A stretch of 32,000 bases of DNA from Candidatus Poseidoniaceae archaeon (GCA_943789275.1 CALSTM010000003.1:600001-632000), one strand, 5' to 3'. Counted from the first letter of the stretch, positions 9,230 to 30,962 are shown. The notes: generated from the sequence alone by a model not told the origin. A program made the numbers and translations.

Positions 9230-9553
9230 ATGAGAGGGGACGCCGTAGGTATGCCTCTCTTTCAATCGGGCCACTCTGCTGTGTTGAACAGAAAGTCCAT
9301 CAAGTCAATTTGGCTTGCAGTTTTGATGGTTTCAATGTCGCTTTCTGTTGGCATCGTTGAATTGAACCGGACACCGTTGGTAGATGCCATTGGTGTAGCA
9401 AGTGTTGGAGCAGGCTGTGCGTTTATCACTCGGGCCAGCGGCGAGGCAATCTATGTCGATCCGGTCAACGGTTCGGATGCTTGGGACGGCACCTGGTCGT
9501 GTCCAAAAGCAACACTTTCCGATGCTCTGAACGACTCCATTTCAGAACGATGA
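9230..9553 (+). CDS. Gene 2 fragment 1: signal peptide plus start of the beta-helix lead-in
   Basis: ATG at 9230. The N-terminus has a basic region followed by a hydrophobic region (NRKSIKSIWLAVLMVSMSLSVGIV, h-region about 9308-9358). It ends ...AIYVDPVNGSDAWDGTWSCPKATLSDALNDSISER*, and the sense continues in frame 3 as NDEIVLYSGRYHENVTVDG. Confidence 0.8.
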   Translation: MRGDAVGMPLFQSGHSAVLNRKSIKSIWLAVLMVSMSLSVGIVELNRTPLVDAIGVASVGAGCAFITRASGEAIYVDPVNGSDAWDGTWSCPKATLSDALNDSISER

Positions 9554-11200: not shown

Positions 11201-14200
11201 CATGAGTGCGGGTGCATACGATGCTGGTGTGAGCAATCCGTGGACGGCCGGTATTTCTTGGACATACACGACGCCCGATGCACCGGTCGAAGGGTGTATG
11301 CTCGATTATGCTGACAACTACGATGCAGACGCCACGCTATCAGACGGCTCGTGCTCCTTCGCATCGTATACGCCACCGGCCACGCTCGACCTCCGTCTCC
11401 ATCTTGACCCAACCAACAGCAGTTCCTACAGCGGCAGCGGCACCAACGTCGCTGACCTTTCTGGGTTCAACAACTACGGAACCGTCGCCGCCGCTGGACC
11501 GACATGGGACGGCGATTTCACACGCTTCTCCTACGATGGGGCGTGCACTGGCTCGACCCCGAACCTGGTTTGCGATGAGATCGAAGTTTCTGACTCAACG
11601 AGCTTGCGCCCGGGCGGAAACGACTGGTCGGTATCAGTTTGGTTCAACGCCTCAACGCACCAACACAGCGTGATACTCGGCGCCTTCGACGACGGAGGGG
11701 CAGCAGTGGATGTTGGATGGGCCATCCGAATGAGAGCATCAGGTGGCATCTATGCAAATGTGGGAACCACTTCCAACAATTCGGCCGCATGGACGTCAGA
11801 AGCATCCATCGATACGGACCGCTGGTATCACGTGGTCTTGGTTGCAGACCCGGGAAATACCCTCAGACTCTATGTTGATGGGCAAAACGTCGGAAGCGGT
11901 TCCTTGTCTGGAAGTGGAGCCCTGCGCAATGTAAGCAACAGCCTCTTCATCGCCTCCTACAACGGCGGTGAATATTCTCAGACCTTTGATGGACAAGTTG
12001 GTTCCGTCATGGCCTTTGCCGATGCACTCAACGCCACCACCATCAATCAAATCTACAATGCAAGCAAGGGTGTGTACAGCAACACGACCACCCTGTCCTT
12101 CCCTCAATCTTCACCGACCTTGCTCCTCGGTCAAACATACAGTTTCCCCATGACTGTCGCCAACGGTGAGATCACGACGTCCTATTCGCTCACGGGAACC
12201 TTGCCAAGCGGCATGAATTTCGAATCGAGCAACGGTACGATTTGGGGAACGCCAACGGCGGCTATGTCAACCACGAGCTACACCGTGACGGCCAACAACT
12301 CAGCCGGCACCTACTCGACCTCGTTCTCGTTGACATCGCAACATGCGGCACCGTACGATTTGGCCTACGCGCCAGAGAACATGACCCTTGAGAAGGGTAC
12401 GGCCATGACGACCAACACGCCGAGTGTGAGCGGGGGCGCCATCACATCTTGGGAAATCAACCCCTCCGTGCCAACTGGACTTTCCTTTAGCACCTCAACC
12501 GGTGCCATCAGTGGTACGCCTTACGTGTTGCAAACAACAGCAACCACGTACACGATATGGGCCAACAATTCAGGCGGAAATGCTTCAGCACAGGTCAACA
12601 TCACCATCAACGATGAAGTGCCGATTATTTCCTATTCGTATGATGACATTACCGGTACCAAGAGCGTGGCCATCAGCCCCCATTCTGGTCCAACTACGAG
12701 CGGTGGGACCATCACCTCATGGGAGATTTCACCATCACCAGGTTCTGCGTTCCACTTTAATTCCGCAAATGGCTACATCAGCGGAACTCCGGGGATTCTT
12801 CTGGCTAGAACCCAATACACCATTTGGGCCAACAATTCAGGTGGTTCGTCCGTTGCCTATGTCAACGTGACCATCAACGATGCAGCGCCGAACGCGTTGG
12901 GTTATTCTCCAGAAAATATGACACTCGAGAAGGATACAGCGATGACGCCGAACCTTCCTTCGGTCAGTGGTGGAACCATCACGTCATGGGAAATCAGTCC
13001 TTCTCTGCCGAGCGGTCTGACATGGGGGGCCTCGGATGGGAAAATCAGTGGAACACCCGCCGTTCTGCAAACGACGACGGTTACGTACACGATTTGGGCC
13101 AACAACTCAGGTGGTTCAGATTCCGCTCAAGTGAACATCACCATCAACGACCAACTCGCATCTGCAACCTATCCTTCAACCGTTGAAGTATCCAACGACC
13201 GAGCGATGACGACGGTCTCGCCGACCGTCACCGGTGGAGCGGTCATCTCGTGGGTCATCGTGCCTTCACTCTCCTCAGGCCTCAATTTCGGTAGTAGCAA
13301 CGGAAGCATCTGGGGCACGCCAACAGGATTGTTGGAGAACGCCACCTACACCGTCTATGCGAACAACAGCGGCGGTTCAACCAGCATTACCTTCACGCTC
13401 GGGCTCAACTGGACGCTGACGCCAAGTGCCGAGGGTGCCTTCATCACCCGCAACAGTTCCATTGCCAGCGACATCACGTGGGAATGGGATTACGATCCGC
13501 TTGAAGCTCAGAACCTTTCATTGGTGACTGGAGAATGGAACACCTGTGCCCTTGATAGCAATCAAAACGTGTTTTGTTGGGGACGAAACGGCAACGGTCA
13601 AATCGGCAACGGACAAACTGGAACGTCTGGTTGCGGTACATCAGGCCACAAGTGCAAGGACATTCCAACAGCAACGAACGATTTGGGCTCGGACGTGATC
13701 TCCCTTGCCTTTGGCCACCAGCATGCATGTGGCTTGCTTGACACTGGTGCCGTGAAGTGTTGGGGCCGAAACAATGCAGGGCAACTTGGAACCAGCGGTG
13801 GAGACAAGGATACGCCTCAAACCATCAATCTCGGGTCAGGGCGAACCGCTACGAGCATCTACGCCGGTGGCCACTACACCTGCGCCATCCTCGATGACGC
13901 CTCCGTCAAGTGCTGGGGGGAGAATGGGAACGGTCAACTCGGTATTGGTTCAAACTCGAACGCCAACACACCGACCACCATTAACACCCTCGGGTCAGGT
14001 CGCACGGCTATTTCTTTAGCAACCGCCATGAGTGCAGTCTGTGCCCTCCTCGATGACGGTTCAGTCAAGTGTTGGGGAGCCTCCGCAAATGGCCAGTTAG
14101 GCAATGGGGGTACCAGTTCAAATCTGAAGAGTCCACCTGCATCTGCAATTAACCTCGGAACCGGCCGTACTGCAAAAGCCATCACAGGTGGCGAATCCCA

Positions 14201-17200
14201 TTTCTGCGCCATCCTCGATGACGATTCCATCAAGTGTTGGGGCAATGGATTCAATGGGAAACTAGGAACCGGGACAACTTCCCACAGATCAACACCAACC
14301 TCAACCAGCGGAAGTTTCGCTACAGGTCGCTATGCGGTCGCCATTGACGCTGGCTACGATCACACCTGTGCCATTCTCGATAACGGCCAACTCACATGCT
14401 GGGGTTCTGATTCTGATGGCCAACTGGGTAACGGCGCTACCACGGGTACGAAATCATCGATTCAATCCACAACCGTCACTCTTGGGTCGGGACGAACGGC
14501 CATTTCGCTTTCTGCAGGTGGAGAGCACACCTGTGCGCAACTGGACAATGGACAACTCAAGTGCTGGGGGAATCGAGCAGACGGTCAAGTTGGCGACAAC
14601 GGGAATTTCAACAATCCGTCCGATCGCACGAGCCCTTCCTCCGTATCCAACAACAACCACGGCGGATATACCTATCTCAATACGGGCGTCATGCCTTCTT
14701 CCGCTGTTACTGGCGCTACCTGCGAGATCTCGCCTTCCCTCCCAACCGGCCTCAGTTTGACCGCCGGCACCTGCACCATCACCGGCACACCGACCGCTAC
14801 AGCCAGCAACGCCACCTACACCATTTGGGCCAACGTTTCCGGCACATCGTACAGCGGTCAAATCTGGCTTGAAGTCGGTTTGAATGCACCGGACATTTCC
14901 TATTCGTCTTCGACCTATACCTACACCAAGGACATAGAAATTTTCACGCTCAACCCAACCAACGTCGGTGGCGAAGTGACAACTTGGGCCATCAACGCAA
15001 CGTTGCCATCAGGCCTTACATTCGAGACCAGTAACGGTACAATTTGGGGCACACCGGACACGATTACGGCATCAACCACCTACACGGTATGGGCGAACAA
15101 TTCCGCTGATTCAGATTCCTTCACCATCACGTTCACCGTAAACGATGCTACTCCGAATTTCTATTACGGCAGCGCAAGCGGTGGAGGCGCACACACACTT
15201 GTCCTCTATCTGGATCAGACCATGAATCCACTCACGCCGACCCAGGCATCCGGGGGTGGAGCGATCACTTCGTGCAGCAGTTCACCATCACTGCCTTCTG
15301 GGCTGTCGTTGAGTTCAACATGTGTCCTTTCAGGAACACCTGATGCAACCGCTACCGGGGCCTTCTACACCATCACAGGAACCAACACAGGCGGTAGCGA
15401 TACAGCATCGTTGTACATCGAAATCCGCTCCTATGGTGGAACATTGAGCGTGACACCAAGCAACACTGAAGGCAGCGTGAACAGTTCCATCTCAGACATC
15501 ACGATGTCCTATGCGCATCAAATCAGCAACTACGGTTGGACATCTGGTGTAAGCAACACGACCACGACCCTCAGCAATAATTTCCTAACCGCAGGTGGAA
15601 CGCACCTGCTCGGCATTGATTCGGGCGATCAAGGCGAGATGGTCGTTGTCTATGCACATAACGATACGAGTTCCGCCAGTGGCACCTACAGCTTGGCCAT
15701 GATGTACCGCTGGGGCGGAACATGGACTGAAACCATTCTCGACACCGGCACAGATACGGGGTATCATCCATCGGTTGCCATCGATCGTCAGGGCGCAATC
15801 CACATCGCCTACATCGATGATCACAACGACGAACTTCGTTATGCTACCAATGCTTCAGGGTCGTGGGTCTTCACAACCTTGGGAAGTTCAACCTACGACA
15901 ACGATGACGGACGTGGAACGGCGATTGTCGTTCACCCAATTACAGATGCCGTTCACATTGTGACAACGATCAACGATAACACCTATCGTGATTTACAATA
16001 TCACACCAATGAAAGTGGTTCTTGGGTGAATGAGACCATCACCAATACGCTCTCGGATGAAGGTCATGACCCTGCTATGGCGATGGATGGCGACGGAAAT
16101 CTCCACGTCGCTTACTATTGCGACGATGGTTGTAGCGATTTGCGTATGTCCAGCCGAATCAATGGCGTTTGGCAAAACGAAACGGTTGCGAGCACCCTTA
16201 ACATTGGAAACGATCCTGACATTGCCATCGATTCACAGGGTACGATTCACATCGTGTCACAGTACCTCAATACCAAACGTATCTATCTCCATTCCGGTAC
16301 GCCAGGAAGTTGGACTGAACAAACAGGGCTCTCAGGAGGAAACGCTCACTGGCCTGTGGTATCGGTTGATTCAAATGATGCTGTCCACATCTCCTATCAT
16401 TTTGGAAACACACAAAAAGATGTGATGTACATGACCAACGCTTCTGGCTCTTGGTCAACAGCGTCCATGATTGAAGGATACGGTGGCTGGGGCAGTGAAA
16501 TGGTCATCGATGCCAACGATGACATCTTCATTCCGAACGTCGCTCCAGGAATAACAGAGATCCAATTGACCACAGTCAAGGGTTCAGGACAAGGTTTGAC
16601 AGCCCGTCCAACCTATGACATTGCACCGATGCTTCCTGACGGTTTGATCATGAACTGGCGTAATGGAACCATTTCGGGCACACCAACAGAAGCCCTTGCC
16701 AACACAACCTTCACCGTCACAGTCACCGCCCTCGGAACCACCACCACATCGGCCTTCACGCTCTTCATCACCGGCGCTCCCGGTGCTATCGCTTACAGCG
16801 ACATCTCAGGGACAAAGGGTACGGCCATCACCCCCGTCACACCGTCCATCACCACCAACGGCACGACCGGTAGCGTGACCTCGTGGACCATCAGTCCAAC
16901 TTTGCCAAGCGGGCTTTCATTCGGTACGAGCAATGGAACGATTTGGGGTACGCCAACAGTGGTTGTTTCCGGAGCGGTGTTCACGATTTGGGCGAACAAC
17001 TCGGTCGGGTCCAAGTCAACAACGGTCAACATCACTGTCAATGATGAAGCACCTGACATCTCTTACAATCCAGACTGGTTTGTTTTGACCAAGGGCACTG
17101 TCATGTCACCAACAGCGACACCAACCAATACAGGTGGTGCGATTCCATCGGGCATTGTCGACTCTGGAAGCAGTCTTGGTAGTCACACCTCAATCGCCCT

Positions 17201-19361
17201 TGATTCGAATGGATACAAGCATATTTCCTACTATCATGCCACCAATAAGGACCTCATGTATGCAACCGATAAGAGCGGTTCTTGGGTCACCACTTCGATT
17301 GATACATCTGGAATTGTTGGCCATTACACCTCCATCGCCATTGATTCCAATGATGATGTTCACATTTCCTACTATGATTCCACCAATGGCGACCTCAAGT
17401 ATGCAACCGATAAGAGCGGTTCATGGGTCACTACTTCGATTGACACCTCTGGAATTGTTGGCCATTACACTTCCATCGCCATTGATTCCAATGACGACGT
17501 GCACATTTCCTACTATGACACCACCAATGGCGACCTCAAGTATGCAACCAATAAGAGCGGTTCTTGGGTCACCACTTCGATCGATACATCTGGGACTTCG
17601 ATTTTTAGCTCTTACACCTCCATTGGCATTGATTCCAATGATGATGTTCACATTTCCTACTATGATTACACCAATGGCGACCTCAAGTATGCGACCGATA
17701 AGAGCGGTTCTTGGGTCACCACTTCGATTGATACATCTGGAATTGTTGGCCATGACACCTCCATCGCCATTGATTCCAATGATGATGTTCACATTTCCTA
17801 CTATGATTACACCAATGGCGACCTCAAGTATGCAACCGATAAGAGCGGTTCTTGGGTCACCACTTCGATCGATACATCTGGAAATGTTGGCGCTTACACC
17901 TCCATCGCCATTGATTCCAATGATGATGTGCACATTTCCCACCAAGATTTCGGGAATGGCGACCTCAAGTATGCAACCGATAAGAGCGGTTCTTGGGTCA
18001 CCACTTCGATCGATACCTCTGGAAATGTTGGCGCTTACACCTCCATCGCCATTGATTCCAACGATGATGTGCACATTTCTTACTATCACATCACCAATAC
18101 CGAACTCAAGTATATCGGTCTTGATTCTTCTTCGAATGTGCTTGGCTATTCGGTCAGTCCAGCCCTACCTGCAGGATTGAGTTTGGATTTGGGTACGGGT
18201 GAAATTTCAGGCACACCAACTGCGCTTTCAACCAACACGACATACACGATAACGGTACGCAACTCTGGCGGTACTAACACAACGACGATCACAATCGAGG
18301 TTCTCGACCAGTTGCCGACCATTGCTTACTCGCCAGAGAACTTGACGCTGACCAACAACACGGCCAGCACCGATTTGCCGCTGACTGCAACGGTCACGGG
18401 TTCGGGGACGATCACCTCTTGGGCGATCAACGCAACCTTGCCTGCTGGCCTCAACTTCGGAACCAGCAACGGTACGATTTGGGGCATTCCGACCGTGCTC
18501 CAAACAACGGCAACAACCTACACGGTTTGGGCCAACAACAGCGGTGGTTCCTCCTCAGCTACGGTGACCATCACGATCAACGACGAGGCACCAGGTCCAT
18601 TCGAGTACAACCCAGAGAACAACACGCTGACGAACAACACCTACGTGCATCTTGAGCCTGACTTCATCAACATGACAACGGGCAACGGCAGTTCTTGGTC
18701 CACCGCACCAGCGGGTTATCAATTGACGAGAACTGATTGGCCGAATGAACCGTGCCTCAATCATACCTACAATGGCACAACTTATGTCTCATATAATTCC
18801 AAATTGCACGGTTACGGTATTGCCAACAACACGTTATGGCTCATCAACAATACCATCCAAGGTGTCGGTTGTTACACGTACTCTAAATGGCCCTCAGGCA
18901 CTGGTTACTCGGAAGGTCTTAGCCAAATGTACGGGACATCGCTGTATTTCATTGGTAAAGATGGTTCGGATCGAAAGTTGTACGGCTACGGTATGGAAAA
19001 TGAAACCGTTTGGGTGGAGAGTACTGCGGAACCCCATGTATGGAGCATGCTGGTTGACGATGTCATGTACTTTTATGGCGAAACGGGTAACAGCGGGTAT
19101 GAACTCCACGGTCACAACCTGAGCAACGGCACCACTTGGATGCTGGACGATATTTACTCTGGCTCAGGAAGTATCACTGGGCCGGCTCTAGGACAGAATT
19201 GGCCGGTCTTGGTGGGATCGACATTTGTGTTTGTGGCAGTCTTCAGTAACGGTAGTACCTACAGTCGTGAGACATGGGCGCACAACATCAGCAACGGGAC
19301 ATCTTGGCGCCTCTCAATCGTATATGATGCATACCACAGCTGGCGCTCAGGTGATTGGTGA
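9531..19361 (+). CDS. Gene 2 fragment 2: beta-helix, LamG, He_PIG units, RCC1 propeller, propellers A2 and B, first kelch-like blades
   Basis: Frame 3 is open from 9531 (stop at 9528-9530) to TGA 19359-19361. The track ORF starts at TTG 9729, but the 66 codons upstream (FQNDEIVLYSGRYHENVTVDGKDNLLIRAADGARVVFDG...) are clearly coding. Confidence 0.9.
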   Translation, partial: TTPFQNDEIVLYSGRYHENVTVDGKDNLLIRAADGARVVFDGTRSITEDLGGVWGAADSDGIQEVTLPVDGWQLFLAYEEQVPARWPNAQFSDETVFNRSYWAEGTLTGSNNAYTQGWLTDAGPETGVHTGLNETINATGLDPEGAIAVMNLGSFRSNSRVITDWNSANGTFAYDGTGVGWKTKHHAYFLEGKRELIDVDGEWWFNNAINRLHYKTPSGQNANNLDLRVKVQPFAMSVENSDGVTIQGLDFFGTTVNFNECDGCSFTNSTLEYPSTSKRGLGIAGESEDDRWMTRFYRSTNSFVDNISITNTDGGALEFQGSAGQSHNNTVNNSYFHAIDWSAADQKGLMVTIYEGGRDMYFTNNTVHLTGASSVLSIGDAPKVFYNEVWDVGHLQTDGAVVQIMQGEAPGAEVAHNWIHDIIKYGARFDAPIGEAGEGRNGTMHHNVIWNVTGGLMVKGDYHDVHNNTVFNSSDGKNDIIALTDGEINNKNSTFHRNAVDKMADHRSGSWSLYPLPAGTYWNNWNGYVNTTDTVWNQLVDPANYDFRPKTNSHLDNMSAGAYDAGVSNPWTAGISWTYTTPDAPVEGCMLDYADNYDADATLSDGSCSFASYTPPATLDLRLHLDPTNSSSYSGSGTNVADLSGFNNYGTVAAAGPTWDGDFTRFSYDGACTGSTPNLVCDEIEVSDSTSLRPGGNDWSVSVWFNASTHQHSVILGAFDDGGAAVDVGWAIRMRASGGIYANVGTTSNNSAAWTSEASIDTDRWYHVVLVADPGNTLRLYVDGQNVGSGSLSGSGALRNVSNSLFIASYNGGEYSQTFDGQVGSVMAFADALNATTINQIYNASKGVYSNTTTLSFPQSSPTLLLGQTYSFPMTVANGEITTSYSLTGTLPSGMNFESSNGTIWGTPTAAMSTTSYTVTANNSAGTYSTSFSLTSQHAAPYDLAYAPENMTLEKGTAMTTNTPSVSGGAITSWEINPSVPTGLSFSTSTGAISGTPYVLQTTATTYTIWANNSGGNASAQVNITINDEVPIISYSYDDITGTKSVAISPHSGPTTSGGTITSWEISPSPGSAFHFNSANGYISGTPGILLARTQYTIWANNSGGSSVAYVNVTINDAAPNALGYSPENMTLEKDTAMTPNLPSVSGGTITSWEISPSLPSGLTWGASDGKISGTPAVLQTTTVTYTIWANNSGGSDSAQVNITINDQLASATYPSTVEVSNDRAMTTVSPTVTGGAVISWVIVPSLSSGLNFGSSNGSIWGTPTGLLENATYTVYANNSGGSTSITFTLGLNWTLTPSAEGAFITRNSSIASDITWEWDYDPLEAQNLSLVTGEWNTCALDSNQNVFCWGRNGNGQIGNGQTGTSGCGTSGHKCKDIPTATNDLGSDVISLAFGHQHACGLLDTGAVKCWGRNNAGQLGTSGGDKDTPQTINLGSGRTATSIYAGGHYTCAILDDASVKCWGENGNGQLGIGSNSNANTPTTINTLGSGRTAISLATAMSAVCALLDDGSVKCWGASANGQLGNGGTSSNLKSPPASAINLGTGRTAKAITGGESHFCAILDDDSIKCWGNGFNGKLGTGTTSHRSTPTSTSGSFATGRYAVAIDAGYDHTCAILDNGQLTCWGSDSDGQLGNGATTGTKSSIQSTTVTLGSGRTAISLSAGGEHTCAQLDNGQLKCWGNRADGQVGDNGNFNNPSDRTSPSSVSNNNHGGYTYLNTGVMPSSAVTGATCEISPSLPTGLSLTAGTCTITGTPTATASNATYTIWANVSGTSYSGQIWLEVGLNAPDISYSSSTYTYTKDIEIFTLNPTNVGGEVTTWAINATLPSGLTFETSNGTIWGTPDTITASTTYTVWANNSADSDSFTITFTVNDATPNFYYGSASGGGAHTLVLYLDQTMNPLTPTQASGGGAITSCSSSPSLPSGLSLSSTCVLSGTPDATATGAFYTITGTNTGGSDTASLYIEIRSYGGTLSVTPSNTEGSVNSSISDITMSYAHQISNYGWTSGVSNTTTTLSNNFLTAGGTHLLGIDSGDQGEMVVVYAHNDTSSASGTYSLAMMYRWGGTWTETILDTGTDTGYHPSVAIDRQGAIHIAYIDDHNDELRYATNASGSWVFTTLGSSTYDNDDGRGTAIVVHPITDAVHIVTTINDNTYRDLQYHTNESGSWVNETITNTLSDEGHDPAMAMDGDGNLHVAYYCDDGCSDLRMSSRINGVWQNETVASTLNIGNDPDIAIDSQGTIHIVSQYLNTKRIYLHSGTPGSWTEQTGLSGGNAHWPVVSVDSNDAVHISYHFGNTQKDVMYMTNASGSWSTASMIEGYGGWGSEMVIDANDDIFIPNVAPGITEIQLTTVKGSGQGLTARPTYDIAPMLPDGLIMNWRNGTISGTPTEALANTTFTVTVTALGTTTTSAFTLFITGAPGAIAYSDISGTKGTAITPVTPSITTNGTTGSVTSWTISPTLPSGLSFGTSNGTIWGTPTVVVSGAVFTIWANNSVGSKSTTVNITVNDEAPDISYNPDWFVLTKGTVMSPTATPTNTGGAIPSGIVDSGSSLGSHTSIALDSNGYKHISYYHATNKDLMYATDKSGSWVTTSIDTSGIVGHYTSIAIDSNDDVHISYYDSTNGDLKYATDKSGSWVTTSIDTSGIVGHYTSIAIDSNDDVHISYYDTTNGDLKYATNKSGSWVTTSIDTSGTSIFSSYTSIGIDSNDDVHISYYDYTNGDLKYATDKSGSWVTTSIDTSGIVGHDTSIAIDSNDDVHISYYDYTNGDLKYATDKSGSWVTTSIDTSGNVGAYTSIAIDSNDDVHISHQDFGNGDLKYATDKSGSWVTTSIDTSGNVGAYTSIAIDSNDDVHISYYHITNTELKYIGLDSSSNVLGYSVSPALPAGLSLDLGTGEISGTPTALSTNTTYTITVRNSGGTNTTTITIEVLDQLPTIAYSPENLTLTNNTASTDLPLTATVTGSGTITSWAINATLPAGLNFGTSNGTIWGIPTVLQTTATTYTVWANNSGGSSSATVTITINDEAPGPFEYNPENNTLTNNTYVHLEPDFINMTTGNGSSWSTAPAGYQLTRTDWPNEPCLNHTYNGTTYVSYNSKLHGYGIANNTLWLINNTIQGVGCYTYSKWPSGTGYSEGLSQMYGTSLYFIGKDGSDRKLYGYGMENETVWVESTAEPHVWSMLVDDVMYFYGETGNSGYELHGHNLSNGTTWMLDDIYSGSGSITGPALGQNWPVLVGSTFVFVAVFSNGSTYSRETWAHNISNGTSWRLSIVYDAYHSWRSGDW
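11292..11360 (+). other. Short Cys-bracketed motif GCMLDYADNYDADATLSDGSCSF
   Basis: The pattern is C-x(4)-A-x-N-Y-x(3)-A-x(3)-D-G-S-C. I recall similar short modules in marine surface proteins but cannot name a family. Confidence 0.3.
11380..12065 (+). other. LamG / concanavalin-A-like lectin domain (Laminin_G_3-like)
   Basis: LRLHLDP...DLSGFNNYGTV...FDG...IEVSDSTSLRPGGNDWSVSVWFNAS...RWYHVVLVADPGNTLRLYVDGQNVGS...FDGQVGSVMAFADAL matches the Laminin_G_3 pattern (W.HVA...L.LYVDG). Confidence 0.75.
13530..14650 (+). repeat. RCC1-type beta-propeller, 7 blades
   Basis: (V/I)KCWG.N..GQLG...repeats with H.CA.LDDGS: VFCWGRNGNGQIGNG, VKCWGRNNAGQLGTS, VKCWGENGNGQLGIG, VKCWGASANGQLGNG, IKCWGNGFNGKLGTG, LTCWGSDSDGQLGNG, LKCWGNRADGQVGDN. 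Confidence 0.9.
15430..16600 (+). other. Seven-blade propeller A2 (paralogue of gene 1 nt 1380-2595)
   Basis: HPSVAIDRQGAIHIAYIDDHNDELRYATNASGSWVFTTLG, GTAIVVHPITDAVHIV, DPAMAMDGDGNLHVAYY, DPDIAIDSQGTIHIVSQ, PVVSVDSNDAVHISYH, EMVIDANDDIFIP. It is collinear with gene 1. Confidence 0.6.
17155..18125 (+). repeat. Propeller B: 7 near-identical blades (~141 bp / 47 aa)
   Basis: (G)HYTSIAIDSNDDVHISYYD(S/T/Y)TNGDLKYATDKSGSWVTTSIDTSG(I/N)VG occurs 7 times. A 141-bp period was verified between 17322 and 17463. Confidence 0.88.
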
Positions 19362-19940
19362 TGTGGCTTACTTTGGTCAACAAACATCTTCTGGAATTTT
19401 CTCGCTCTATGCTTACAATGCTTCAAATGCGACGCTATGGATGGTTTCAGGGAGTAATGCTAATCGTGGTGTTGCTGTAACTATTGACGGTGTATTGTAT
19501 GGTAGTCGTGGTCTACAGTTCTCTTCCAGGTGGCTCTACACTCTGGGCGCACAACCCTAACAACGGAACCTCGTGGGTAATTGCTCCAAACATTGCTCCA
19601 GGAATTAATCAGGCTTTTGAGATAGCCGGAACGCTGTATTACAGGGGCGGTTTATCTTCCAGCCAAGAAGTATGGGCGTATGAGCCGACCAATACGACGG
19701 CATGGAAGGTCACGGACATCACGCTCCCTCAATCCGGCCTCTTCTTTGCCCTTGGTGACCTCATTTACTTTACAGGCAGCAACGCCACGACCAGTGGTGT
19801 TTGGGCGCACAGCACTTCCAACCATTCGACCTGGTTTGTGAGCAATCCATTCTCAAGCAACGCCGCCACCGCGGTTGCTGTTGTGAACGGTACGCTTTAC
19901 TTGGGTAATTCTGGAATGGCTGCTCATCAGCCAACCTCCA
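18640..19940 (+). other. Kelch-like ~9-blade propeller region spanning three reading frames
   Basis: Each blade has ...(Y/F)F.G...(L/V)(W/H/Y)(A/G)(H/Y)N.SN.T.W: LHGYGIANNTLW, LYGYGMENETVW, LHGHNLSNGTTW, TWAHNISNGTSW, LYAYNASNATLW, LWAHNPNNGTSW, VWAYEPTNTTAW, VWAHSTSNHSTW. Confidence 0.6.
19225..19560 (+). CDS. Gene 2 fragment 3 (frame 1): two kelch-like blades. Only about 19330-19515 is judged genuinely coding
   Basis: AGAQVIGDVAYFGQQTSSGIFSLYAYNASNATLWMVSGSNANRGVAVTIDGVLYGSRG fits the blade pattern of the flanking frames. Confidence 0.7.
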   Translation: MCLWQSSVTVVPTVVRHGRTTSATGHLGASQSYMMHTTAGAQVIGDVAYFGQQTSSGIFSLYAYNASNATLWMVSGSNANRGVAVTIDGVLYGSRGLQFSSRWLYTLGAQP

Positions 19941-21943
19941 TCAACTACCGGACGAACACGGGTGGACCCGTCACCTCGTGGGCGATCAACGCCAGCCTGC
20001 CGAGTGGCCTTTCCTTCAGCACGACCAACGGCAGCATCTACGGCACGCCGACCGAGCTGTGGACACAAACGTCTTACATGGTCTGGGCCAACAACAGCGG
20101 TGGCTCAACCGTGGCCTACCTCAACATCACCGTGGTTGACGAGTTACCAACGCTTTCGTATTCTCCAGAGAACTTGACACTGACCAAGAATCAGACAAGC
20201 ACCGATTTGCCACTGACTGCAACGGTCACGGGTTCGGGGACGATCACGTCCTGGGCCATCAGCCCAGTACTGCCTAGCGGTTTGTCCTTTGGAACGAGCA
20301 ACGGAACGATTTGGGGCACTCCGACGGTCTTGCAGACCAGTCCAGTGACCTACACCGTTTGGGCGAACAACAGCGGAGGTTCATCCTCAGCCACGGTCAA
20401 CATCACTGTCAACGACGAAGCGCCTGACATCTCTTACAATCCAGACTGGTTTGTTCTTACCAACAATACGGCCATGTCTCCGATTGCAACACCGACGAAT
20501 TCTGGTGGTGCGATTCCGTCAACCGTCATCGATTCAACTGGCAATGTTGGAGAAGATACTTCCATCGCCATTGATTCAAATGGAAACAGGCACATTTCCT
20601 ACTACGACGAAACTGGTTCCGACCTCAAGTATGCGACGGATAAAACTGGTTCTTGGGTCACCGTTTCCGTTGACACAACAGGGTTTGTGGGAACTGACTC
20701 TTCTATCGCCATCGATTCCAACGATGCAGTCCACATTTCCTACTATGATTACACCAATAGCGACCTCAAGTACGCCACTTGTTCAAGCGGTTGCACAATC
20801 GCAAGCAATTGGGACGATGTCTCCGTTGACACAACAGGGTTTGTGGGAACTGACTCTTCTATCGCCATCGATTCCAACGATGCAGTCCACATTTCCTACT
20901 ATGATTACACCAATAGCGACCTCAAGTACGCCACCTGTTCAAGTGGTTGCACAACCGCAAGCAACTGGGACGATGTTTCCGTTGAAACAACAGGTGTCGT
21001 GGGATCTTTCACTTCTATCGCCATCGATTCCAATGATGCAGTCCACATTTCCTACTATGATTCCACCAATAGGGATCTCGAGTACGCCACCTGTTCAAGT
21101 GGTTGCACAACCGCAAGCAATTGGATCACTACTTCGGTTGAAACGACAGGTGTTGTGGGATATTACACTTCAATCGCCATCGATTCAACCGATGCAGTCC
21201 ACATTTCCTACTTCGATAATACCAATGATGACCTCAAGTACGCCACATGTTCAAGCGGTTGCACAACAGCAAGCAATTGGGTCGATGTCTCCGTTGACAT
21301 AACAGGTCATGTGGGACGTTACACTTCCATCTCCATCGATTCTAACGATAATGCCCACATTTCCTACTATGATACCACCAATAGCGATCTCAAGTACGCC
21401 ACCTGTTCAAGCGGTTGTACAACCGCAAGCAATTGGGACAAGGTCTCCGTTGACACATCAGGTAGTGTGGGATATTACACTTCAATCGCCATCGATTCCA
21501 GCGATACTATCCACATTTCCTACTTCGATAATACCAATGACGACCTCAAGTACGTCGTTCTCGATTCTTCTTCGAATATGTATGGCTATTCCATCAGTCC
21601 AGACCTGCCTGCTGGATTGAGTTTGAACTTTACAAGTGGCGAAATCTCAGGAACGCCAACTGCACTATCAACCAACACGACCTATACTATTACAGTGAGA
21701 AACAGTGGTGGTGTGAACACGACCACGATCACAATCGAGGTTCTCGACCAGTTGCCGACCATTGCTTACTCGCCAGAGAACTTGACACTGACCAAGAATC
21801 AGACCAGCACCGATTTGCCGCTGACTGCAACGCGTCATGGGTTCGGGGACAATCACGTCCTGGGCCATCAGCCCAGCTTTGCCAAGCGGTCTTATCCTTT
21901 GGAACGAGCAACGGAACGATTTGGGGAACGCCGACATCATTGA
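19484..21943 (+). CDS. Gene 2 fragment 4 (frame 2): remaining kelch-like blades, He_PIG units, propeller C
   Basis: Sense runs from about 19515 to 21832. The last ~37 codons of the track ORF (RHGFGDNHVLGHQPSF...) are out-of-frame read-through after a C insertion at 21833, judged against the paralogous units at 18381 and 20221. Confidence 0.9.
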   Translation: MTVYCMVVVVYSSLPGGSTLWAHNPNNGTSWVIAPNIAPGINQAFEIAGTLYYRGGLSSSQEVWAYEPTNTTAWKVTDITLPQSGLFFALGDLIYFTGSNATTSGVWAHSTSNHSTWFVSNPFSSNAATAVAVVNGTLYLGNSGMAAHQPTSINYRTNTGGPVTSWAINASLPSGLSFSTTNGSIYGTPTELWTQTSYMVWANNSGGSTVAYLNITVVDELPTLSYSPENLTLTKNQTSTDLPLTATVTGSGTITSWAISPVLPSGLSFGTSNGTIWGTPTVLQTSPVTYTVWANNSGGSSSATVNITVNDEAPDISYNPDWFVLTNNTAMSPIATPTNSGGAIPSTVIDSTGNVGEDTSIAIDSNGNRHISYYDETGSDLKYATDKTGSWVTVSVDTTGFVGTDSSIAIDSNDAVHISYYDYTNSDLKYATCSSGCTIASNWDDVSVDTTGFVGTDSSIAIDSNDAVHISYYDYTNSDLKYATCSSGCTTASNWDDVSVETTGVVGSFTSIAIDSNDAVHISYYDSTNRDLEYATCSSGCTTASNWITTSVETTGVVGYYTSIAIDSTDAVHISYFDNTNDDLKYATCSSGCTTASNWVDVSVDITGHVGRYTSISIDSNDNAHISYYDTTNSDLKYATCSSGCTTASNWDKVSVDTSGSVGYYTSIAIDSSDTIHISYFDNTNDDLKYVVLDSSSNMYGYSISPDLPAGLSLNFTSGEISGTPTALSTNTTYTITVRNSGGVNTTTITIEVLDQLPTIAYSPENLTLTKNQTSTDLPLTATRHGFGDNHVLGHQPSFAKRSYPLERATERFGERRHH
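20525..21570 (+). repeat. Propeller C: 7 blades (~156 bp / 52 aa) with a CSSGC insertion
   Basis: G(T/S/Y)(D/F/Y)(S/T)SIAIDSNDAVHISYYDYTNSDLKYATCSSGCT(I/T)ASNWDDVSVDTTGFV. A 156-bp period was verified between 20687 and 20843. Confidence 0.85.
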
Positions 21944-22036
21944 TGACGCTCAAGACGTTCACAATTTCGGCGAGCAATAGCGGCGGTTCAGTCAATGCAA
22001 CCGTTAACATCACTGTCAATGATGAAGCCCCTGATA
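21834..22036 (+). CDS. Gene 2 fragment 5: one He_PIG unit split over frame 3 (21834-21893) and frame 1 (21895-22036)
   Basis: VMGSGTITSWAISPALPSGL, then an extra A at 21894, then SFGTSNGTIWGTPTSLMTLKTFTISASNSGGSVNATVNITVNDEAPDI. It overlaps track ORF 21940..22140, whose tail is out of frame. Confidence 0.7.
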
Positions 22037-23383
22037 TCGTATTCTCCAGACTGGTTTGTTCTCACCAACAATACGGCCATGTCGCCAACGGCTACACCAA
22101 CCAATTCAGGTGGTGCAATCCCGTCTGGAATTATTGCTGAACCGTCGCAAGTTGGCTCTCAGTATTCCGAGGGGAGATACAATTCTATTGCCGTTGATTC
22201 GAATGGCGTCGCACATGTTGTTTATTTTGGCAACTATAATTCACAAACGTTGTATTACGCAACCAATGCCAACGGTTCATGGGTTACGACTGTGCTCAAG
22301 AATCAGAATGGTATAACCAACGGAGCATCAATTGTCATTGACTCTAACGATACCATCCACATCAGTTATTCACACAGGTTTAGCCAATACAGTATGGGGA
22401 ATAACCTCTATTACTCGACTTGTTCTTCATCTTGTTCATCTGCATCATCATGGAGTGGTGGTTTGGTCGTCGGAGGTGGGTATTACAACGATATTGCGAT
22501 CGATACCAACGGTACATTGCACATCTCTCACTGGACAGGTTCCTCGCTCCAGCATTCGACCTGTTCCTCTTCTTGTTCAACAGCATCGTCTTGGACCACA
22601 ACCTCGGTTACTTCGGTGACCCAACAGATGAGGATTTCAATGACAACCGATTCCAACAACAGTATACACATCCTTTACTCAGAGGGCTACCCAACAAGAG
22701 ACCTCAACTATGCGACCTGCTCTTCTGGATGCACATCGTCATCATCGTGGTCTACAGTTGAGCTCAATGCTTCCAGCACTTCCACTTTTATAGGGGATCA
22801 ATCCATTGCTGTTGATTCAAACAACGGTATTCACATAACATATCAATTCAATACTAACCTGACCTATGCGACCTGTTCTTCTTCATGTACATCAGCATCA
22901 TCATGGACCAATACCACGGTTCCCCCTGTCAAGGCTTTATACGGCCTCGGGGAAATCGCCATTGATTCCAACGACCATCTCTACATCTCGTATGCAAAGG
23001 GTTCTTCCAATGCAGCATCTAAACTAACCTATGCGACCTGTTCTTCTTCATGTACATCAGCATCGTCGTGGACCAACACCACGTTTGACACAAATGGCGG
23101 TAATCAACGGTCAATGGCTCTTGATTCCAACGACCGTGTGCACATCTCCTATCACTCAGGTAGTACGGATAAATCCCTTAGGTACCTCGCAGTTGAACCA
23201 TCATCGATTGTTTATGCTTACTCCATCAGTCCAGCCTTGCCTGCAGGGTTAAGTTTGGAAATCAGCACAGGTGAGATCTCAGGAACGCCGACTGAGTTGT
23301 CGACCAATACAACATACACGATTACGGTACGCAATGCGGGGTGGCACAAATACGACGACCATCACCATCGAAGTCAACGATGA
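21995..23383 (+). CDS. Gene 2 fragment 6 (frame 2): split He_PIG unit with nested propeller D
   Basis: Sense runs from about 22037 (SYSPDWFVLTNNTAMSPTATPTNSGGAIPSG...) to about 23340 (...TYTITVRNAG). The track-ORF tail WHKYDDHHHRSQR is out of frame after an extra G in a G-run. Confidence 0.9.
   Translation: MQPLTSLSMMKPLISYSPDWFVLTNNTAMSPTATPTNSGGAIPSGIIAEPSQVGSQYSEGRYNSIAVDSNGVAHVVYFGNYNSQTLYYATNANGSWVTTVLKNQNGITNGASIVIDSNDTIHISYSHRFSQYSMGNNLYYSTCSSSCSSASSWSGGLVVGGGYYNDIAIDTNGTLHISHWTGSSLQHSTCSSSCSTASSWTTTSVTSVTQQMRISMTTDSNNSIHILYSEGYPTRDLNYATCSSGCTSSSSWSTVELNASSTSTFIGDQSIAVDSNNGIHITYQFNTNLTYATCSSSCTSASSWTNTTVPPVKALYGLGEIAIDSNDHLYISYAKGSSNAASKLTYATCSSSCTSASSWTNTTFDTNGGNQRSMALDSNDRVHISYHSGSTDKSLRYLAVEPSSIVYAYSISPALPAGLSLEISTGEISGTPTELSTNTTYTITVRNAGWHKYDDHHHRSQR
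22130..23200 (+). other. Propeller D: 7 diverged blades with a C-S-S-(S/G)-C insertion
   Basis: NSIAVDSNGVAHVVYF, GASIVIDSNDTIHISYS...YYSTCSSSCSSASSW, NDIAIDTNGTLHISHW...HSTCSSSCSTASSW, ISMTTDSNNSIHILYS...YATCSSGCTSSSSW, QSIAVDSNNGIHITYQ...YATCSSSCTSASSW, IAIDSNDHLYISYA...YATCSSSCTSASSW, SMALDSNDRVHISYH. Confidence 0.75.
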
Positions 23384-23478
23384 GGTCCCGACAATAGCGT
23401 ACTCGCCGAACGATTTGGACCATGACCAATAACACGGCAAGCAGCGACCTTCCGCTCTCGCCGACCATCACAGGTTCG
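23343..23478 (+). CDS. Gene 2 fragment 7: short frame-3 (23343-23420) and frame-1 (23422-23478) pieces of He_PIG units
   Basis: GTNTTTITIEVNDEVPTIAYSPNDLD, then an extra C at 23421, then MTNNTASSDLPLSPTITGS (the start of track ORF 23422..23649, the rest of which is out of frame). Confidence 0.65.
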
Positions 23479-24470
23479 GTGAAATCACGTCGTGGGCCAT
23501 CAACGCCATCTTGCCAGCGGTCTGTACCTTCGAGACCAGCAACGGTACCATTTGGGGAACACCGACCGAACTGTGGACGCAAACGGCCTACATGGTCTGG
23601 GCCAACAACAGCGGTGGGTCCGCCGTCGCCTACCTCAACATCACCGTAGTTGACGAACTACCAACGATTGCTTACTCGCCGAACGATTTGGATTTGACCA
23701 ACAACACGGCAAGCAGTGACCTTCCGCTCTCGCCGACCGTGACAGGTTCTGGTGAATTTACGTCGTGGGCCATTAACGCAAGTCTTCCGAGCGGACTTAC
23801 CTTCGAGACCAGCAACGGAACCATTTGGGGAACACCGACCGAACTGTGGACGCAAACGGCCTACATGGTCTGGGCCAACAACAGCGGTGGGTCCGCCGTC
23901 GCCTACCTCAACATCACCGTAGTTGACGAACTACCAACGATTGCTTACTCGCCGAACGATTTGGATTTGACCAACAACACTGCTTCGAGCGATCTTCCAC
24001 TTTCGCCGACCGTGACAGGTTCTGGTGAATTTACGTCGTGGGCCATTAACGCAAGTCTTCCGAGCGGACTTACCTTCGAGACCAGCAACGGAACCATTTG
24101 GGGCACACCGACCGAACTGTGGACGCAAACGGCCTACATGGTCTGGGCCAACAACAGCGGTGGCTCAAGCGAGGCCTACCTCAACATCACCGTAGTTGAC
24201 GAACTACCAACGATTGCTTACTCGCCAAACGACTTGGATTTGACCAACAACACGGCAAGCAGTGACCTTCCACTCTCGCCGACCGTGACTGGTTCTGGTG
24301 AATTTACGTCGTGGGCCATTAACGCAAGTCTTCCGAGCGGTTTGACTTTCGGTACGAGCAACGGAACAATTTGGGGCACACCGACCGAACTGTGGACGCA
24401 AACGGCCTACATGGTCTGGGCCAACAACAGCGGTGGCTCAAGCGAGGCCTACCTCAACATCACGGTCAAC
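23379..24470 (+). repeat. 4 x 273-bp tandem He_PIG units (the first unit carries four indels)
   Basis: ELPTIAYSPNDLDLTNNTASSDLPLSPTVTGSGEFTSWAINASLPSGLTFETSNGTIWGTPTELWTQTAYMVWANNSGGS(A/S)(V/E)AYLNITVVD. Units start at 23379, 23652, 23925 and 24198. Antisense shadow ORFs recur at 23658/23931/24204. Confidence 0.9.
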
Positions 24471-26573
24471 GATCAAATGCCAACGCTTTCGTATTCACCT
24501 GCCAACCTCACGCTCTACAAGAACACCGCCAGCAGTGATTTGCCGTTGAACGCCACGCTGACCGGTCCTGGAGAGATCACTTCGTGGACCATCGCACCCG
24601 GTTTGCCGAACGGTTTGACCTTTGAGACAAGCAACGGAACGATATGGGGCATTCCAACACAGCGTATGACCACCACACAGTTCACGGTCTGGGCCAACAA
24701 CAGCGGTGGGTCCGCCGTCGCTTACCTCAACATCACGGTGCTCCACGAAGCACCGATGTTCAGCTATTCATCCTACAACTTGACGCTGGTCAACAACACG
24801 GCCATGACTGCAATGGGTGCGCCGATTACGGGTGGCGACGTCACATCGTGGGAAGTTGAACCGGCTTGGCCAACAGGTCTCTATTTAGGGTCCTTATATG
24901 GAACAATTTGGGGAACGCCAACCGTGGTTCAAAACATGACCATGTACCAGATTTGGGGCAACAATTCAGGTGGCTCTCACTCTGTCTTCATCAACATCAC
25001 CGTCGATGACCGAGCACCTTCGTTCACCTACAACCCAGAAAACCTCACCCTGACCAACAACACGGTCAGCACTGACCTACCGCTTGTACCAACGGTTTCG
25101 AATACTGGAGATGCTCCAACAGGTTGGGTCTTGATGGGCACCTTGCCTGCAGGTCTCAACTTTGGCACCAACAACGGAACCATTTGGGGTACGCCAACCG
25201 AGCTATGGACGACCACAAATTACACCGTATACGGGAACAACACCGGCGGTTCGTTCAATGTGAGCATCAACATTACGGTCAACGATCAGATGCCAACGCT
25301 TTCGTATTCTCCAGAGAATTTGACATTCTACAATGATACTGCCAGCAGCGACCTTCCACTTTCGCCGACCATCACCGGTTCAGGCGAGTTTGTATCATGG
25401 GCCATCAGTCCATCAGAGCCAAGCGGTCTTTCCTTTGATACTTCGAACGGAACGCTCAGTGGAACGCCAACTGAACTGCTGACACGTACAATGTTCACGA
25501 TTACGGCGACCAACACCGGTGGAACAGCAACAGCGTACATCAACATCACAATTGTTGACCAAGTGCCGACGATTGCGTACTCGCCAAACGACTTGAGCAT
25601 GACCAACAATACGGCGAGCAGTGACCTACCGCTTTCGCCAACCATCACTGGTTCAGGTGAGGTTGTGTCTTGGAGCATCAGTCCATCAGTGCCAAGTGGT
25701 TTGGCCTTTGATACTTCAAACGGAACGCTCAGCGGCACGCCGACTGAATTGCAGACACGGACAATGTACACCATCACAGCAACAAACACCGGTGGGACAG
25801 CAACAGCGTACATCAACATCACAATTGTTGACGAAGTGCCGACGATTGCGTACTCGCCAAACGACTTGAACATGACCAACAACACGGCAAGCATTGACCT
25901 TCCACTTTTGCCGACCATCACCGGTTCAGGCGAGTTCGTATCGTGGGCCATCAGCCCATCAGAGCCAAGCGGTCTTTCCTTTGATACTTCGAACGGAACG
26001 CTCAGCGGAACGCCGACTGAATTGCTGACACGGACAATGTACACCATCACAGCAACAAACACCGGTGGAACGGCAACAGCCTACATCAACATCACAATCG
26101 TTGACGAAGTTCCGACGATTGTCTACTCACCAAACGATTTGAACATGACCAACAACACTGCCTCGCTCGATCTTCCGCTCTCGCCAACAGTGACCGGTTC
26201 TGGCGAGTTCGTGTCCTGGGCCATCAGCCCTTCAGTGCCAAGCGGTTTGGCCTTCAGCACCTCAACAGGTGTGCTCAGTGGAACGCCGACAGAATTGCTG
26301 ACACGTAGTATGTTCACGATTACGGCGACCAACACTGGTGGCTCAAGTATCGCCTACATCAACATCACCATTGTTGACGAGGTGCCGACCATTGCTTACT
26401 CGCCAAACGACTTGAGCATGACCAACAATACGGGGAGCAGTGACCTTCCACTTTTGCCGACCATCACCGGTTCAGGTGAGTTGTGTCTTGGGCCATCAGT
26501 CCAGCAGTGCCAAGCGGTCTTGCGTTTGACACCTCGACAGGTGTGCTCAGTGGAACGCCGACTGAATTGCTGA
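23481..26573 (+). CDS. Gene 2 fragment 8 (frame 3): ~11 He_PIG units (track ORF 23511..26573)
   Basis: Sense runs from GEITSWAINA... (23481) to ...PTITGSGE (26480). The track-ORF tail LCLGPSVQQCQAV... is out of frame after loss of one G: ggtgagGttgtg at 25657 versus ggtgagttgtg at 26475. Confidence 0.9.
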   Translation, partial: EITSWAINAILPAVCTFETSNGTIWGTPTELWTQTAYMVWANNSGGSAVAYLNITVVDELPTIAYSPNDLDLTNNTASSDLPLSPTVTGSGEFTSWAINASLPSGLTFETSNGTIWGTPTELWTQTAYMVWANNSGGSAVAYLNITVVDELPTIAYSPNDLDLTNNTASSDLPLSPTVTGSGEFTSWAINASLPSGLTFETSNGTIWGTPTELWTQTAYMVWANNSGGSSEAYLNITVVDELPTIAYSPNDLDLTNNTASSDLPLSPTVTGSGEFTSWAINASLPSGLTFGTSNGTIWGTPTELWTQTAYMVWANNSGGSSEAYLNITVNDQMPTLSYSPANLTLYKNTASSDLPLNATLTGPGEITSWTIAPGLPNGLTFETSNGTIWGIPTQRMTTTQFTVWANNSGGSAVAYLNITVLHEAPMFSYSSYNLTLVNNTAMTAMGAPITGGDVTSWEVEPAWPTGLYLGSLYGTIWGTPTVVQNMTMYQIWGNNSGGSHSVFINITVDDRAPSFTYNPENLTLTNNTVSTDLPLVPTVSNTGDAPTGWVLMGTLPAGLNFGTNNGTIWGTPTELWTTTNYTVYGNNTGGSFNVSINITVNDQMPTLSYSPENLTFYNDTASSDLPLSPTITGSGEFVSWAISPSEPSGLSFDTSNGTLSGTPTELLTRTMFTITATNTGGTATAYINITIVDQVPTIAYSPNDLSMTNNTASSDLPLSPTITGSGEVVSWSISPSVPSGLAFDTSNGTLSGTPTELQTRTMYTITATNTGGTATAYINITIVDEVPTIAYSPNDLNMTNNTASIDLPLLPTITGSGEFVSWAISPSEPSGLSFDTSNGTLSGTPTELLTRTMYTITATNTGGTATAYINITIVDEVPTIVYSPNDLNMTNNTASLDLPLSPTVTGSGEFVSWAISPSVPSGLAFSTSTGVLSGTPTELLTRSMFTITATNTGGSSIAYINITIVDEVPTIAYSPNDLSMTNNTGSSDLPLLPTITGSGELCLGPSVQQCQAVLRLTPRQVCSVERRLNC

Positions 26574-26923
26574 CACGTAGCATGTTCACGATTACCGCAA
26601 CCAACACCGGTGGAACGGCAACAGCGTACATCAACATCACAATCGTTGACGAACTTCCAACGATTGCATACTCGCCGAACGATTTGATTATGACCAACAA
26701 TACTGTTTCGAGTGATCTTCCGCTTTCGCCGACCATCACCGGCTCTGGCGAGATTGTATCGTGGGCCATCAGCCCATCAGAGCCAAGCGGTCTTTCCTTT
26801 GATACTTCGAACGGAACGCTCAGCGGAACGCCGACTGAATTGCTGACACGTACAATGTACACCATCACAGCAACAAACACAGGTGGGACAGCAACAGCGT
26901 ACATCAACATCACCGTTCTTGAC
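25287..26923 (+). repeat. 6 x 273-bp tandem He_PIG units (roughly 80-90% identical by eye)
   Basis: (Q/E)(V/L/M)PT(I/L)(A/V/S)YSPNDL(S/N/I)MTNNTAS(S/I/L)DLPL(S/L)PT(I/V)TGSGE(F/V/I)VSW(A/S)ISPS(E/V)PSGL(S/A)FDTSNGTLSGTPTEL(L/Q)TRTM(F/Y)TITATNTGGTATAYINITIVD. Units start at 25287, 25560, 25833, 26106, 26379 and 26651. Confidence 0.85.
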
Positions 26924-29173: not shown

Positions 29174-29185
29174 GGGGTCCCCTCA
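29171..29185. repeat. 15-bp perfect palindrome TGAGGGGTCCCCTCA containing both convergent stop codons
   Basis: TGA (29171-29173) ends gene 2, and TCA (29183-29185, i.e. TGA on the minus strand) ends the DUF3592-like gene. The inverted repeat is certain; a terminator role is speculative. Confidence 0.9.
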
Positions 29186-30958: not shown

Positions 30959-30962
30959 TCAA

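Follow-up and report, generated by a model that had tools for sequence, protein, structure and literature searches.

Several extracellular adhesion proteins carry one complete domain inside another. The hybrid domain of integrin beta subunits holds an inserted beta-I domain, which is von Willebrand factor A (vWA)-like, and RrgA is a nested pilus adhesin; in both, a loop of an immunoglobulin (Ig)-like beta-sandwich accommodates a complete ligand-binding domain with adjacent ends, and the host domain stays in the stalk. Here we describe a comparable arrangement in a stretch of 32,000 nucleotides from Candidatus Poseidoniaceae archaeon (GCA_943789275.1 CALSTM010000003.1:600001–632000), hereafter the window. 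The element in question is a cassette, present three times in a giant surface-protein gene, in which a seven-bladed propeller appears to be inserted into a He_PIG unit, a cadherin-like domain of Ig type. The cassette differs from the integrin and RrgA cases in that the guest is a seven-bladed propeller and not a vWA/I domain, the host is He_PIG, the organism is an archaeon and the nested unit is repeated; there is no sequence relationship between them.

The two components of the cassette have their own described counterparts. Like the cassette propeller, the PLL and PHL lectins (8q82, 5mxg, 6rgg) comprise seven four-stranded blades in ~340 residues, and their repetitive blades are suited to multivalent binding. 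Unlike it, they are free soluble proteins rather than inserts; the trait of their family is the binding of fucose or O-methylated sugars in inter-blade pockets, and the likeness here is one of predicted fold. A sequence match links the second half of the split unit to the cadherin-like modules of the Staphylococcus aureus adhesin SraP (4m00, 4m03; E 3.8e-5), which, like He_PIG units, are stalk modules of giant adhesins. However, the SraP modules and the Pfam He_PIG domain are contiguous stretches of ~90 residues, whereas the split unit is supplied by two segments that lie 327–359 residues apart.

Within the searchable papers, nothing relevant was found on He_PIG combined with a propeller or on the insertion of propellers into Ig-like domains. 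Domain insertion is known, but a full seven-bladed propeller in a cadherin-like Ig unit, repeated along the chain, is undescribed in that literature, and current domain libraries label these proteins only as 'putative Ig domain-containing'. The arrangement would illustrate a way to mount a domain with adjacent ends on a linear stalk while leaving the stalk unbroken. The Poseidoniales have yet to be cultured, and there is debate about their attachment to particles and algae (PMC6461757, PMC6864105). The propellers are candidate glycan-binding heads on giant surface proteins of this group, and the cassette, at ~425 residues, is small enough for direct recombinant testing.

Sequence evidence for a split He_PIG unit

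The cassettes occupy 17046–18308, 20417–21748 and 22031–23381, and each consists of a He_PIG first half of ~33 residues, a propeller of 327–359 residues and a second half of ~57 residues. A preliminary description of the window, made from the sequence alone, had proposed three He_PIG units split by propellers; the proposal is borne out, and the peptides quoted in it are all present in the translations. Its start for cassette 1 (17043) needs a small correction, as the peptide EAPDISY begins one codon later, at 17046; the unit does end with TITIEVLD at 18308, in frame 0. Cassette 2 is read in frame 2, as is cassette 3 from 22031 onward, until one extra base near 23338 puts its last 14 residues (GGTNTTTITIEVND, to 23381) in frame 0. 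An indel at ~22030–22037 severs the first half of cassette 3 from the preceding unit.

We consider it likely that each cassette represents one He_PIG domain split by a complete seven-bladed propeller. The main evidence comes from a profile of the 14 uninterrupted He_PIG units of the window, compared by hhalign with a profile of 44 full cassettes. Canonical columns 1–35 align to cassette residues 5–40, before the propeller (probability 96.8, E 2.7e-10), and canonical columns ~31–90 align to cassette residues 369–425, after the propeller (probability 99.5, E 4.5e-22). The two matches overlap by ~4 residues, the canonical xVxSW pairing with both AIPS and VLGY, and the halves sum to 33 + 57 = 90 residues versus 91 for the canonical unit (a 273-nt period according to Tandem Repeats Finder, TRF). 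Host matches on the two sides of the guest are complementary and essentially non-overlapping, and the guest is autonomous elsewhere, a pattern that corresponds to a nested architecture. No contiguous He_PIG domain of ~90 residues is present in the cassette; the 33- and 57-residue segments stand apart, with the 327–359 propeller residues between them. Nor is the upstream piece a complete domain of another kind, an outcome that the preliminary description had named as fatal to its proposal, as the ~33 residues align to He_PIG columns 1–35.

The Pfam model of He_PIG (PF05345, gathering score 24 bits) recognizes mainly the second half, which clears the threshold alone with 42.1 bits (profile 35–95). 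The in situ matches after the propeller span profile positions 32–95 or 34–95 (start at 32–35 of 96). Constructs from which the propeller has been deleted match in one stretch, with 40.1–44.4 bits (profile 4–96, 11–95 or 12–95), and the N-terminal piece contributes little or no score (for cassette 1, 40.1 bits with it versus 42.1 bits without). The N-terminal piece scores poorly because that part of the Pfam model is weakly conserved, so that the within-family profile is the stronger test.

Predicted structure of the cassette

The more extensive of two AlphaFold2 (AF2) models covers 606 amino acids (aa; window 16776–18593), comprising an intact unit, cassette 1 and another intact unit, and was built from a multiple sequence alignment (MSA) of 36 natural sequences of 40–82% identity, restricted to natural nested cassettes with their own flanks. 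The mean predicted local distance difference test score (pLDDT) is 90.5, the predicted template modelling score is 0.75, and no residue falls below 50. Averaged over successive ten-residue segments, the pLDDT of the split unit is 88/89/91/89/77 in the N-terminal half and 85/88/87/91/85/94 in the C-terminal half, next to 74–90 for the upstream and 79–95 for the downstream intact unit, which serve as controls. The strands of the split unit (95–97, 101–105 and 116–118 before the propeller; 455–461, 468–470, 477–479, 485–496 and 499–510 after it) follow, as three plus five, the same eight-strand pattern as the intact downstream unit (515–517, 522–526, 539–541, 548–551, 559–561, 568–570, 576–588 and 591–602), matching the prediction that the halves reassemble. 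Between the halves lie 28 predicted strands. Modelling of a whole cassette, the check put forward in the preliminary description, thus yields a split unit that matches the intact units in strand pattern and confidence, from which contacts between its halves are inferred.

In the arrangement that we propose, the chain would lay down strands A, B and B', depart from the sandwich at the TNxGG turn, build the seven-bladed propeller, and return for strands C to G. The ends of the propeller would be adjacent, which would make the insertion geometrically easy, and the Ig domain would stand in for the Asp-box-like hairpin (ATDKSGSW) of blade 7. Nesting of this type would keep the row of Ig-like units continuous as a stalk, with the propeller as a side-arm, whereas an in-line propeller with adjacent ends would fold the stalk back on itself. 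The cassette would further duplicate as a whole, recombine within its Ig halves and homogenize its internal blades.

Several observations speak against this proposal or narrow it. The other AF2 model, of cassette 1 alone on a shallow, near-invariant MSA (17 near-identical rows), placed the propeller at a pLDDT of 85–97 and both Ig halves at 28–69. The packing of the N-terminal half on the C-terminal half is deduced from confidence and strand pattern. The gene is interrupted as assembled, and cassettes 2 and 3 may lie outside one protein if the frameshifts are real. As for the guest, no Pfam or NCBIfam model reaches threshold on the propeller (Pfam gives a sub-threshold SBBP match only), and the PDB profile search finds no sequence-level relative with a solved structure; the comparison with lectins made below is one of fold, at 11–16% identity. 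The low confidence of both halves in the AF2 model of cassette 1 alone and the lack of a Pfam gain from the N-terminal piece in cassette 1 would also fit an arrangement without a single sandwich, in which the 33-residue upstream piece is a mere linker or propeller cap and the downstream piece is a truncated five-stranded Ig-like module. We regard this as very unlikely: the upstream piece aligns specifically to canonical columns 1–35, is conserved as well as the C-terminal half across cassettes and species, and reaches a pLDDT of ~90 with canonical A/B/B' strands when the MSA is deeper, and the lengths of the two pieces sum to one unit.

Table 1. Coordinates of the cassettes, with the proposed He_PIG halves, and of other features of the window
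Feature	Position	Strand	Evidence
Giant gene for a predicted surface protein, hosting the cassettes	9293–29173	+	ORF list, frame walk, terminal peptides
Uninterrupted He_PIG unit upstream of cassette 1 (control for structure prediction)	16776–17045	+	Unit list; pLDDT 74–90, full strand set
Cassette 1, He_PIG first half EAPDISYNPDWFVLTKGTVMSPTATPTNTGGAI; strands A, B, B'	17046–17144	+	hhalign columns 1–35; AF2
Cassette 1, seven-bladed propeller, 47-aa blades	17145–18125	+	Seven anchors, 28 strands with pLDDT 83–98, Foldseek, TRF period 141
Cassette 1, He_PIG second half VLGYSVSPALPAGL...TTITIEVLD; strands C to G	18138–18308	+	Pfam 42 bits, hhalign probability 99.5, AF2
62-bp stretch identical to 21725–21786, at the 3' ends of cassettes 1 and 2	18285–18346	+	Exact-match scan
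Uninterrupted He_PIG unit downstream of cassette 1 (control)	18309–18584	+	Unit list; pLDDT 79–95
Probable fourth nested unit, with ELWxxDGT-repeat propeller as guest	18585–20143	+	hhalign, profile P value
Cassette 2, He_PIG first half	20417–20515	+	85% identical to cassette 1 first half; translation
Cassette 2, seven-bladed propeller; blades 2–6 of 52 aa with CSSGCTxASNW hairpin	20516–21565	+	TRF, anchors
Cassette 2, He_PIG second half	21578–21748	+	Pfam profile 34–95; 84% identical to cassette 1 second half
Cassette 3, He_PIG first half	22031–22120	+	76–85% identical to the other first halves
Cassette 3, seven-bladed propeller, diverged blades	22121–23197	+	Anchors; 0.42 aa identity between blades
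Cassette 3, He_PIG second half, extra base near 23338	23210–23381	+	Pfam He_PIG profile 34–82 before the shift
C-terminal membrane helix ILCPLFLLVLVAVAMLLV	28637–28690	+	Translation; charged tail of ~160 residues after the helix

Propeller fold and possible function

Seven blade anchors are found in each of the three cassettes. Blades recur every 47 aa in cassette 1, every 52 aa in cassette 2 and every 48–55 aa in cassette 3, and TRF finds arrays with periods of 141 and 156 nt. The sequence of the repeat is W-VTTSID / YTSIAID / VHISYYD / DLKYAT-DKSGS. On entering the propeller, the chain runs through AIPSG-IVDS, which is sequence-equivalent to SW-VTTSIDTS, the fourth strand of the repeat and the outermost of its blade, and it exits after LKYIGLD. 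Because the entry strand is equivalent to the fourth repeat strand, and because the bacterial free-standing homologs examined begin at the same strand, blade 7 would be closed by the N-terminal strand IVDS in a 3+1 velcro. In sialidases, the Asp-box forms the hairpin between strands 3 and 4 of a blade; if the DKSGSW hairpin occupies the same place here, the N-terminal strand closes blade 7 and the Ig domain replaces the hairpin. The hairpin is not a true Asp-box of the form S-x-D-x-G-x-T-W, as ATDKSGSW has one residue more between the aspartate and the glycine.

We note that in cassettes 2 and 3 the ATDKSGSW hairpin of blades 2–6 is replaced by a CSSGCTxASNW or CSSSCxSASSW loop, which is five residues longer and contains two cysteines. 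Each of these two cassettes has 10 cysteines and cassette 1 has none; blade 1 keeps the short hairpin.

In Foldseek, the predicted propeller is matched best by the Photorhabdus PLL/PHL seven-bladed lectins (E 8e-17 to 1e-14, TMt 0.74–0.79, 11–16% identity), which rank ahead of GH145, CV39L, PL25 lyases and sialidases, and the model superposes on them with seven four-stranded blades. At the sequence level, a profile search of all PDB sequences returned no PLL/PHL chain at E<=1. An NCBIfam scan of the cassettes gave nothing, and none of the three window ORFs matched BNR_4 (PF15892) at E<=0.1, the homologs showing only faint matches to it. The repeat family itself is very common, with 10,659 cluster representatives at E<=1e-3 in a representative search with the cassette 3 propeller, and 4506 matches at E<=1e-5 among 8000 candidates scored in a homolog search with the cassette 2 propeller; above threshold, no Pfam or NCBIfam model matches this very large family here.

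From the similarity in predicted fold, we tentatively suggest that the propellers could be multivalent glycan-binding (lectin-like) heads, for attachment to particles, algal surfaces or polysaccharides; multivalency is proposed because near-identical blades favour several equivalent binding sites. The propellers could instead be enzymes of the sialidase, GH145 or polysaccharide-lyase type that degrade algal polysaccharides at the cell surface, as Foldseek also matches GH145 BT3686, the PL25 ulvan lyase and sialidases, and some homologs have the faint BNR_4 matches noted above. An enzymatic role is improbable, given that the enzyme propellers reach a TMt of 0.32–0.64 versus 0.74–0.79 for the lectins, that blades 2–6 of cassette 1 are 84–97% identical in nucleotide sequence, which fits repeated equivalent sites over one asymmetric active site, that the propeller is small (327–359 aa), and that no Pfam or NCBIfam enzyme family is matched. 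Somewhat unlikely, in our view, is a third role, as protein–protein or purely structural modules (lateral contacts in an envelope lattice, or cell–cell contacts) without sugar binding. Propellers are generic interaction platforms, the host protein also has RCC1-type and ELWxxDGT-type propellers, and sugar-binding residues could not be mapped; against such a role, all of the closest solved folds bind or act on carbohydrates, and the host protein contains Laminin_G_3, a ConA-like lectin domain.

Duplication, probable recombination and blade evolution

The blades diverge from one another to a graded extent, in agreement with the preliminary description: their mean pairwise identity (aa/nt) is 0.74/0.82 in cassette 1, 0.67/0.76 in cassette 2 and 0.42/0.63 in cassette 3. 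The perfect identity reported there for the 3' ends of cassettes 1 and 2 is real, although the stretch measures 62 bp rather than about 65 bp (Table 1). Its suggestion of duplication as a unit likewise agrees with our comparison, in which the halves of the three split units are 76–85% identical to each other and only 30–55% identical to any uninterrupted unit; the cassette appears to have duplicated as a whole because the split halves group with one another and not with the intact units.

Comparison with other genomes adds two further processes. In two other species-representative genomes (loci L003 and L004; 1351–3450 versus window 17034–18308), the cassette 1 propeller and the adjoining Ig residues are essentially identical in translation, the distal parts of both Ig halves differ, and the upstream neighbour differs. 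This mosaic points to recombination inside the Ig halves. Within the propeller of cassette 1, blades 1 and 7 remain orthologous by position from species to species, with 0.82–0.96 nt identity at the three loci compared (L005, L007 and L008). Blades 2–6 are interchangeable, with 0.82–0.97 nt identity both within and between species, and blades 2 and 5 of the window are 97% identical. Judged by these identities, the internal blades 2–6 are subject to concerted evolution.

Distribution and origin of the nesting

Among 257 proteins fetched by two homolog searches, 46 contain full cassettes, 52 in all, some of which sit directly after the signal peptide and ahead of an RCC1 propeller (P0180, P0098 and P0199). 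In species-representative genomes (one genome per species), ~30 loci cover query residues 1–425, and these belong without exception to Poseidoniales or to metagenome-assembled genomes (MAGs) labelled only euryarchaeote, Methanobacteriota or Thermoplasmatota. This distribution bears on the question of whether the split is an assembly artefact caused by mis-joined repeats. The region is highly repetitive, and its single-base indels cluster in the repeats between cassettes, but the chance of an artefact is negligible: the same junctions occur three times in the window, in the 52 cassettes of 46 proteins, and in ~30 independent species-level MAGs from different studies at 49–96% identity, and, apart from one base near 23338, none of the indels falls in a junction.

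Matches confined to residues ~30–360 are mostly bacterial, from Brocadiaceae and other Planctomycetota, Nitrospirota, Chlamydiae and Firestonebacteria. Like the cassette propeller, these free-standing relatives have the repeat SIAxDSxxxxHISYYD...LKYAT..SGSW and seven blades, with 50–63% identity in the best segments. Unlike it, the propeller of the two bacterial relatives examined (L043 and L071) is un-nested, following right after the signal peptide and preceding complete, uninterrupted Ig-like domains; the first propeller strand after the signal peptide is ADWTTNIIDSTG in one and ASWTVETVDSN in the other. Because full-length matches are confined to the Poseidoniales lineage and the bacterial propellers examined are un-nested, the nesting looks like a Poseidoniales innovation on a widespread propeller.

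Other propellers in the window

A fourth nested unit is probable between cassettes 1 and 2. A He_PIG first half (18585–18698) is followed by a propeller of ~415 aa (~18699–19951), which is interrupted by single-base frameshifts at 19333 and 19513, and by a second half (19952–20143). The N-terminal half EAPGPFEYNPENNTLTNNTYVHLEPDFINMTTGNG matches canonical columns 1–37 of a 15-sequence profile with P 2.4e-4, and the C-terminal half, which starts TNTGGPVTSWAI, gives an hhalign probability of 99.6. The propeller is of the ELWxxDGT type, a name taken from database annotations of homologs, and is probably nested at the same insertion point as the cassette propellers.

Three more propellers, A1 (1378–2775), A2 (15435–16775) and RCC1 (13404–14879), are each followed by a clear He_PIG second half (probability 95.7–96.6). 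In their upstream pieces hhalign finds no He_PIG first half, and in Pfam the upstream piece of spliced A2 constructs adds no score. The preliminary description had suggested that A1 and A2 are nested in the same way; the downstream half supports this (probability 95.7), but the upstream piece is unrecognizable as a first half, and the suggestion stays unproven. All three propellers are preceded by a common motif, TLTPSAEGAFITRNSSIASDITWEW / LSVTPSNTEGSVNSSISDITMSY, which profile methods do not recognize as a first half.

It is possible, though on the speculative side, that the turn before strand C is a general 'port', used repeatedly by Poseidoniales for unrelated propellers (PLL-like three times, ELWxxDGT, and possibly RCC1 and A1/A2), with the cassettes then evolving by whole-cassette duplication, Ig-half recombination and concerted blade evolution. 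If true, the planktonic archaea that are most abundant in the surface ocean would possess a modular, lineage-specific system that diversifies their recognition of ligands.

The host gene and its surroundings

The plus strand of the window is a run of very large open reading frames (ORFs), including 61–9144 ahead of the host gene. As assembled, the host gene consists of ORFs 9729–19361, 19484–21943, 21995–23383, 23511–26573 and 26483–29173, and cassettes 1, 2 and 3 lie in the first three of these, with frameshifts between. The 'gene 2' of the preliminary description is a stitched reading of these ORFs. If restored, the host protein would have ~6,600 residues. Its translation begins, from 9293, with a hydrophobic signal/anchor KSIKSIWLAVLMV; N-x-S/T sequons occur at 2.5 per 100 residues, and Pfam finds many He_PIG units, in arrays, together with Laminin_G_3 and RCC1. 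As predicted from its signal and anchor peptides (Table 1) and its sequons, the host is a membrane-anchored surface protein of Poseidoniales (Marine Group II), the group to which the names of close homologs assign the window.

The ORFs from 9729 to 29173 are probably a single gene that single-base indels have broken up. Two contigs of >700 kb from ENA assemblies, reached via P0072 and P0066, share 99.6% identity with the window over 20 kb; an exact-sequence look-up of ORF 21995–23383 gave no match. Relative to these two contigs there are 16–17 indels, with clusters at 19333–19513, 21699–22037, 23264–23549 and 26481–26583 that fall within repeated He_PIG units between cassettes, and a further shift lies between 9293 and 9729. 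The ORF breaks differ between the assemblies, with 4154+478+1860 aa and 3223+951+496+1017+896 aa versus 3210+819+462+1020+896 aa in the window, and a related assembly (L001) reads through two breaks, with ORFs of 4154 and 1860 aa. Because the indels cluster in repeats and the break pattern differs between assemblies, we read the breaks as probable consensus errors; real pseudogenization of the host gene is less likely. P0072 has the same frameshifted N-terminus as the window, which could be taken as the sign of a true split. We rejected this argument, as the two sequences, at 99.6% identity, are not independent and their ORF breaks differ.

Downstream of cassette 3, tandem He_PIG units at 23400–23980 have a 273-nt period with 94% identity over 2.1 copies (TRF), and the units at 23658, 23931 and 24204 are nearly identical. 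ORF 61–9144 runs off the start of the window inside an RCC1 propeller, and its C-terminus (8540–9144) consists of a Lys/Ala/Asp-rich repeat KAAKDAEAKAAKDAKAQADAD with a short, conserved-looking tail after it. Downstream of the host gene, the minus strand (29183–31862) encodes a DUF3592-like membrane protein, a thiopurine S-methyltransferase family protein and an enoyl-CoA hydratase, and the genes for the latter two are syntenic in two related contigs.

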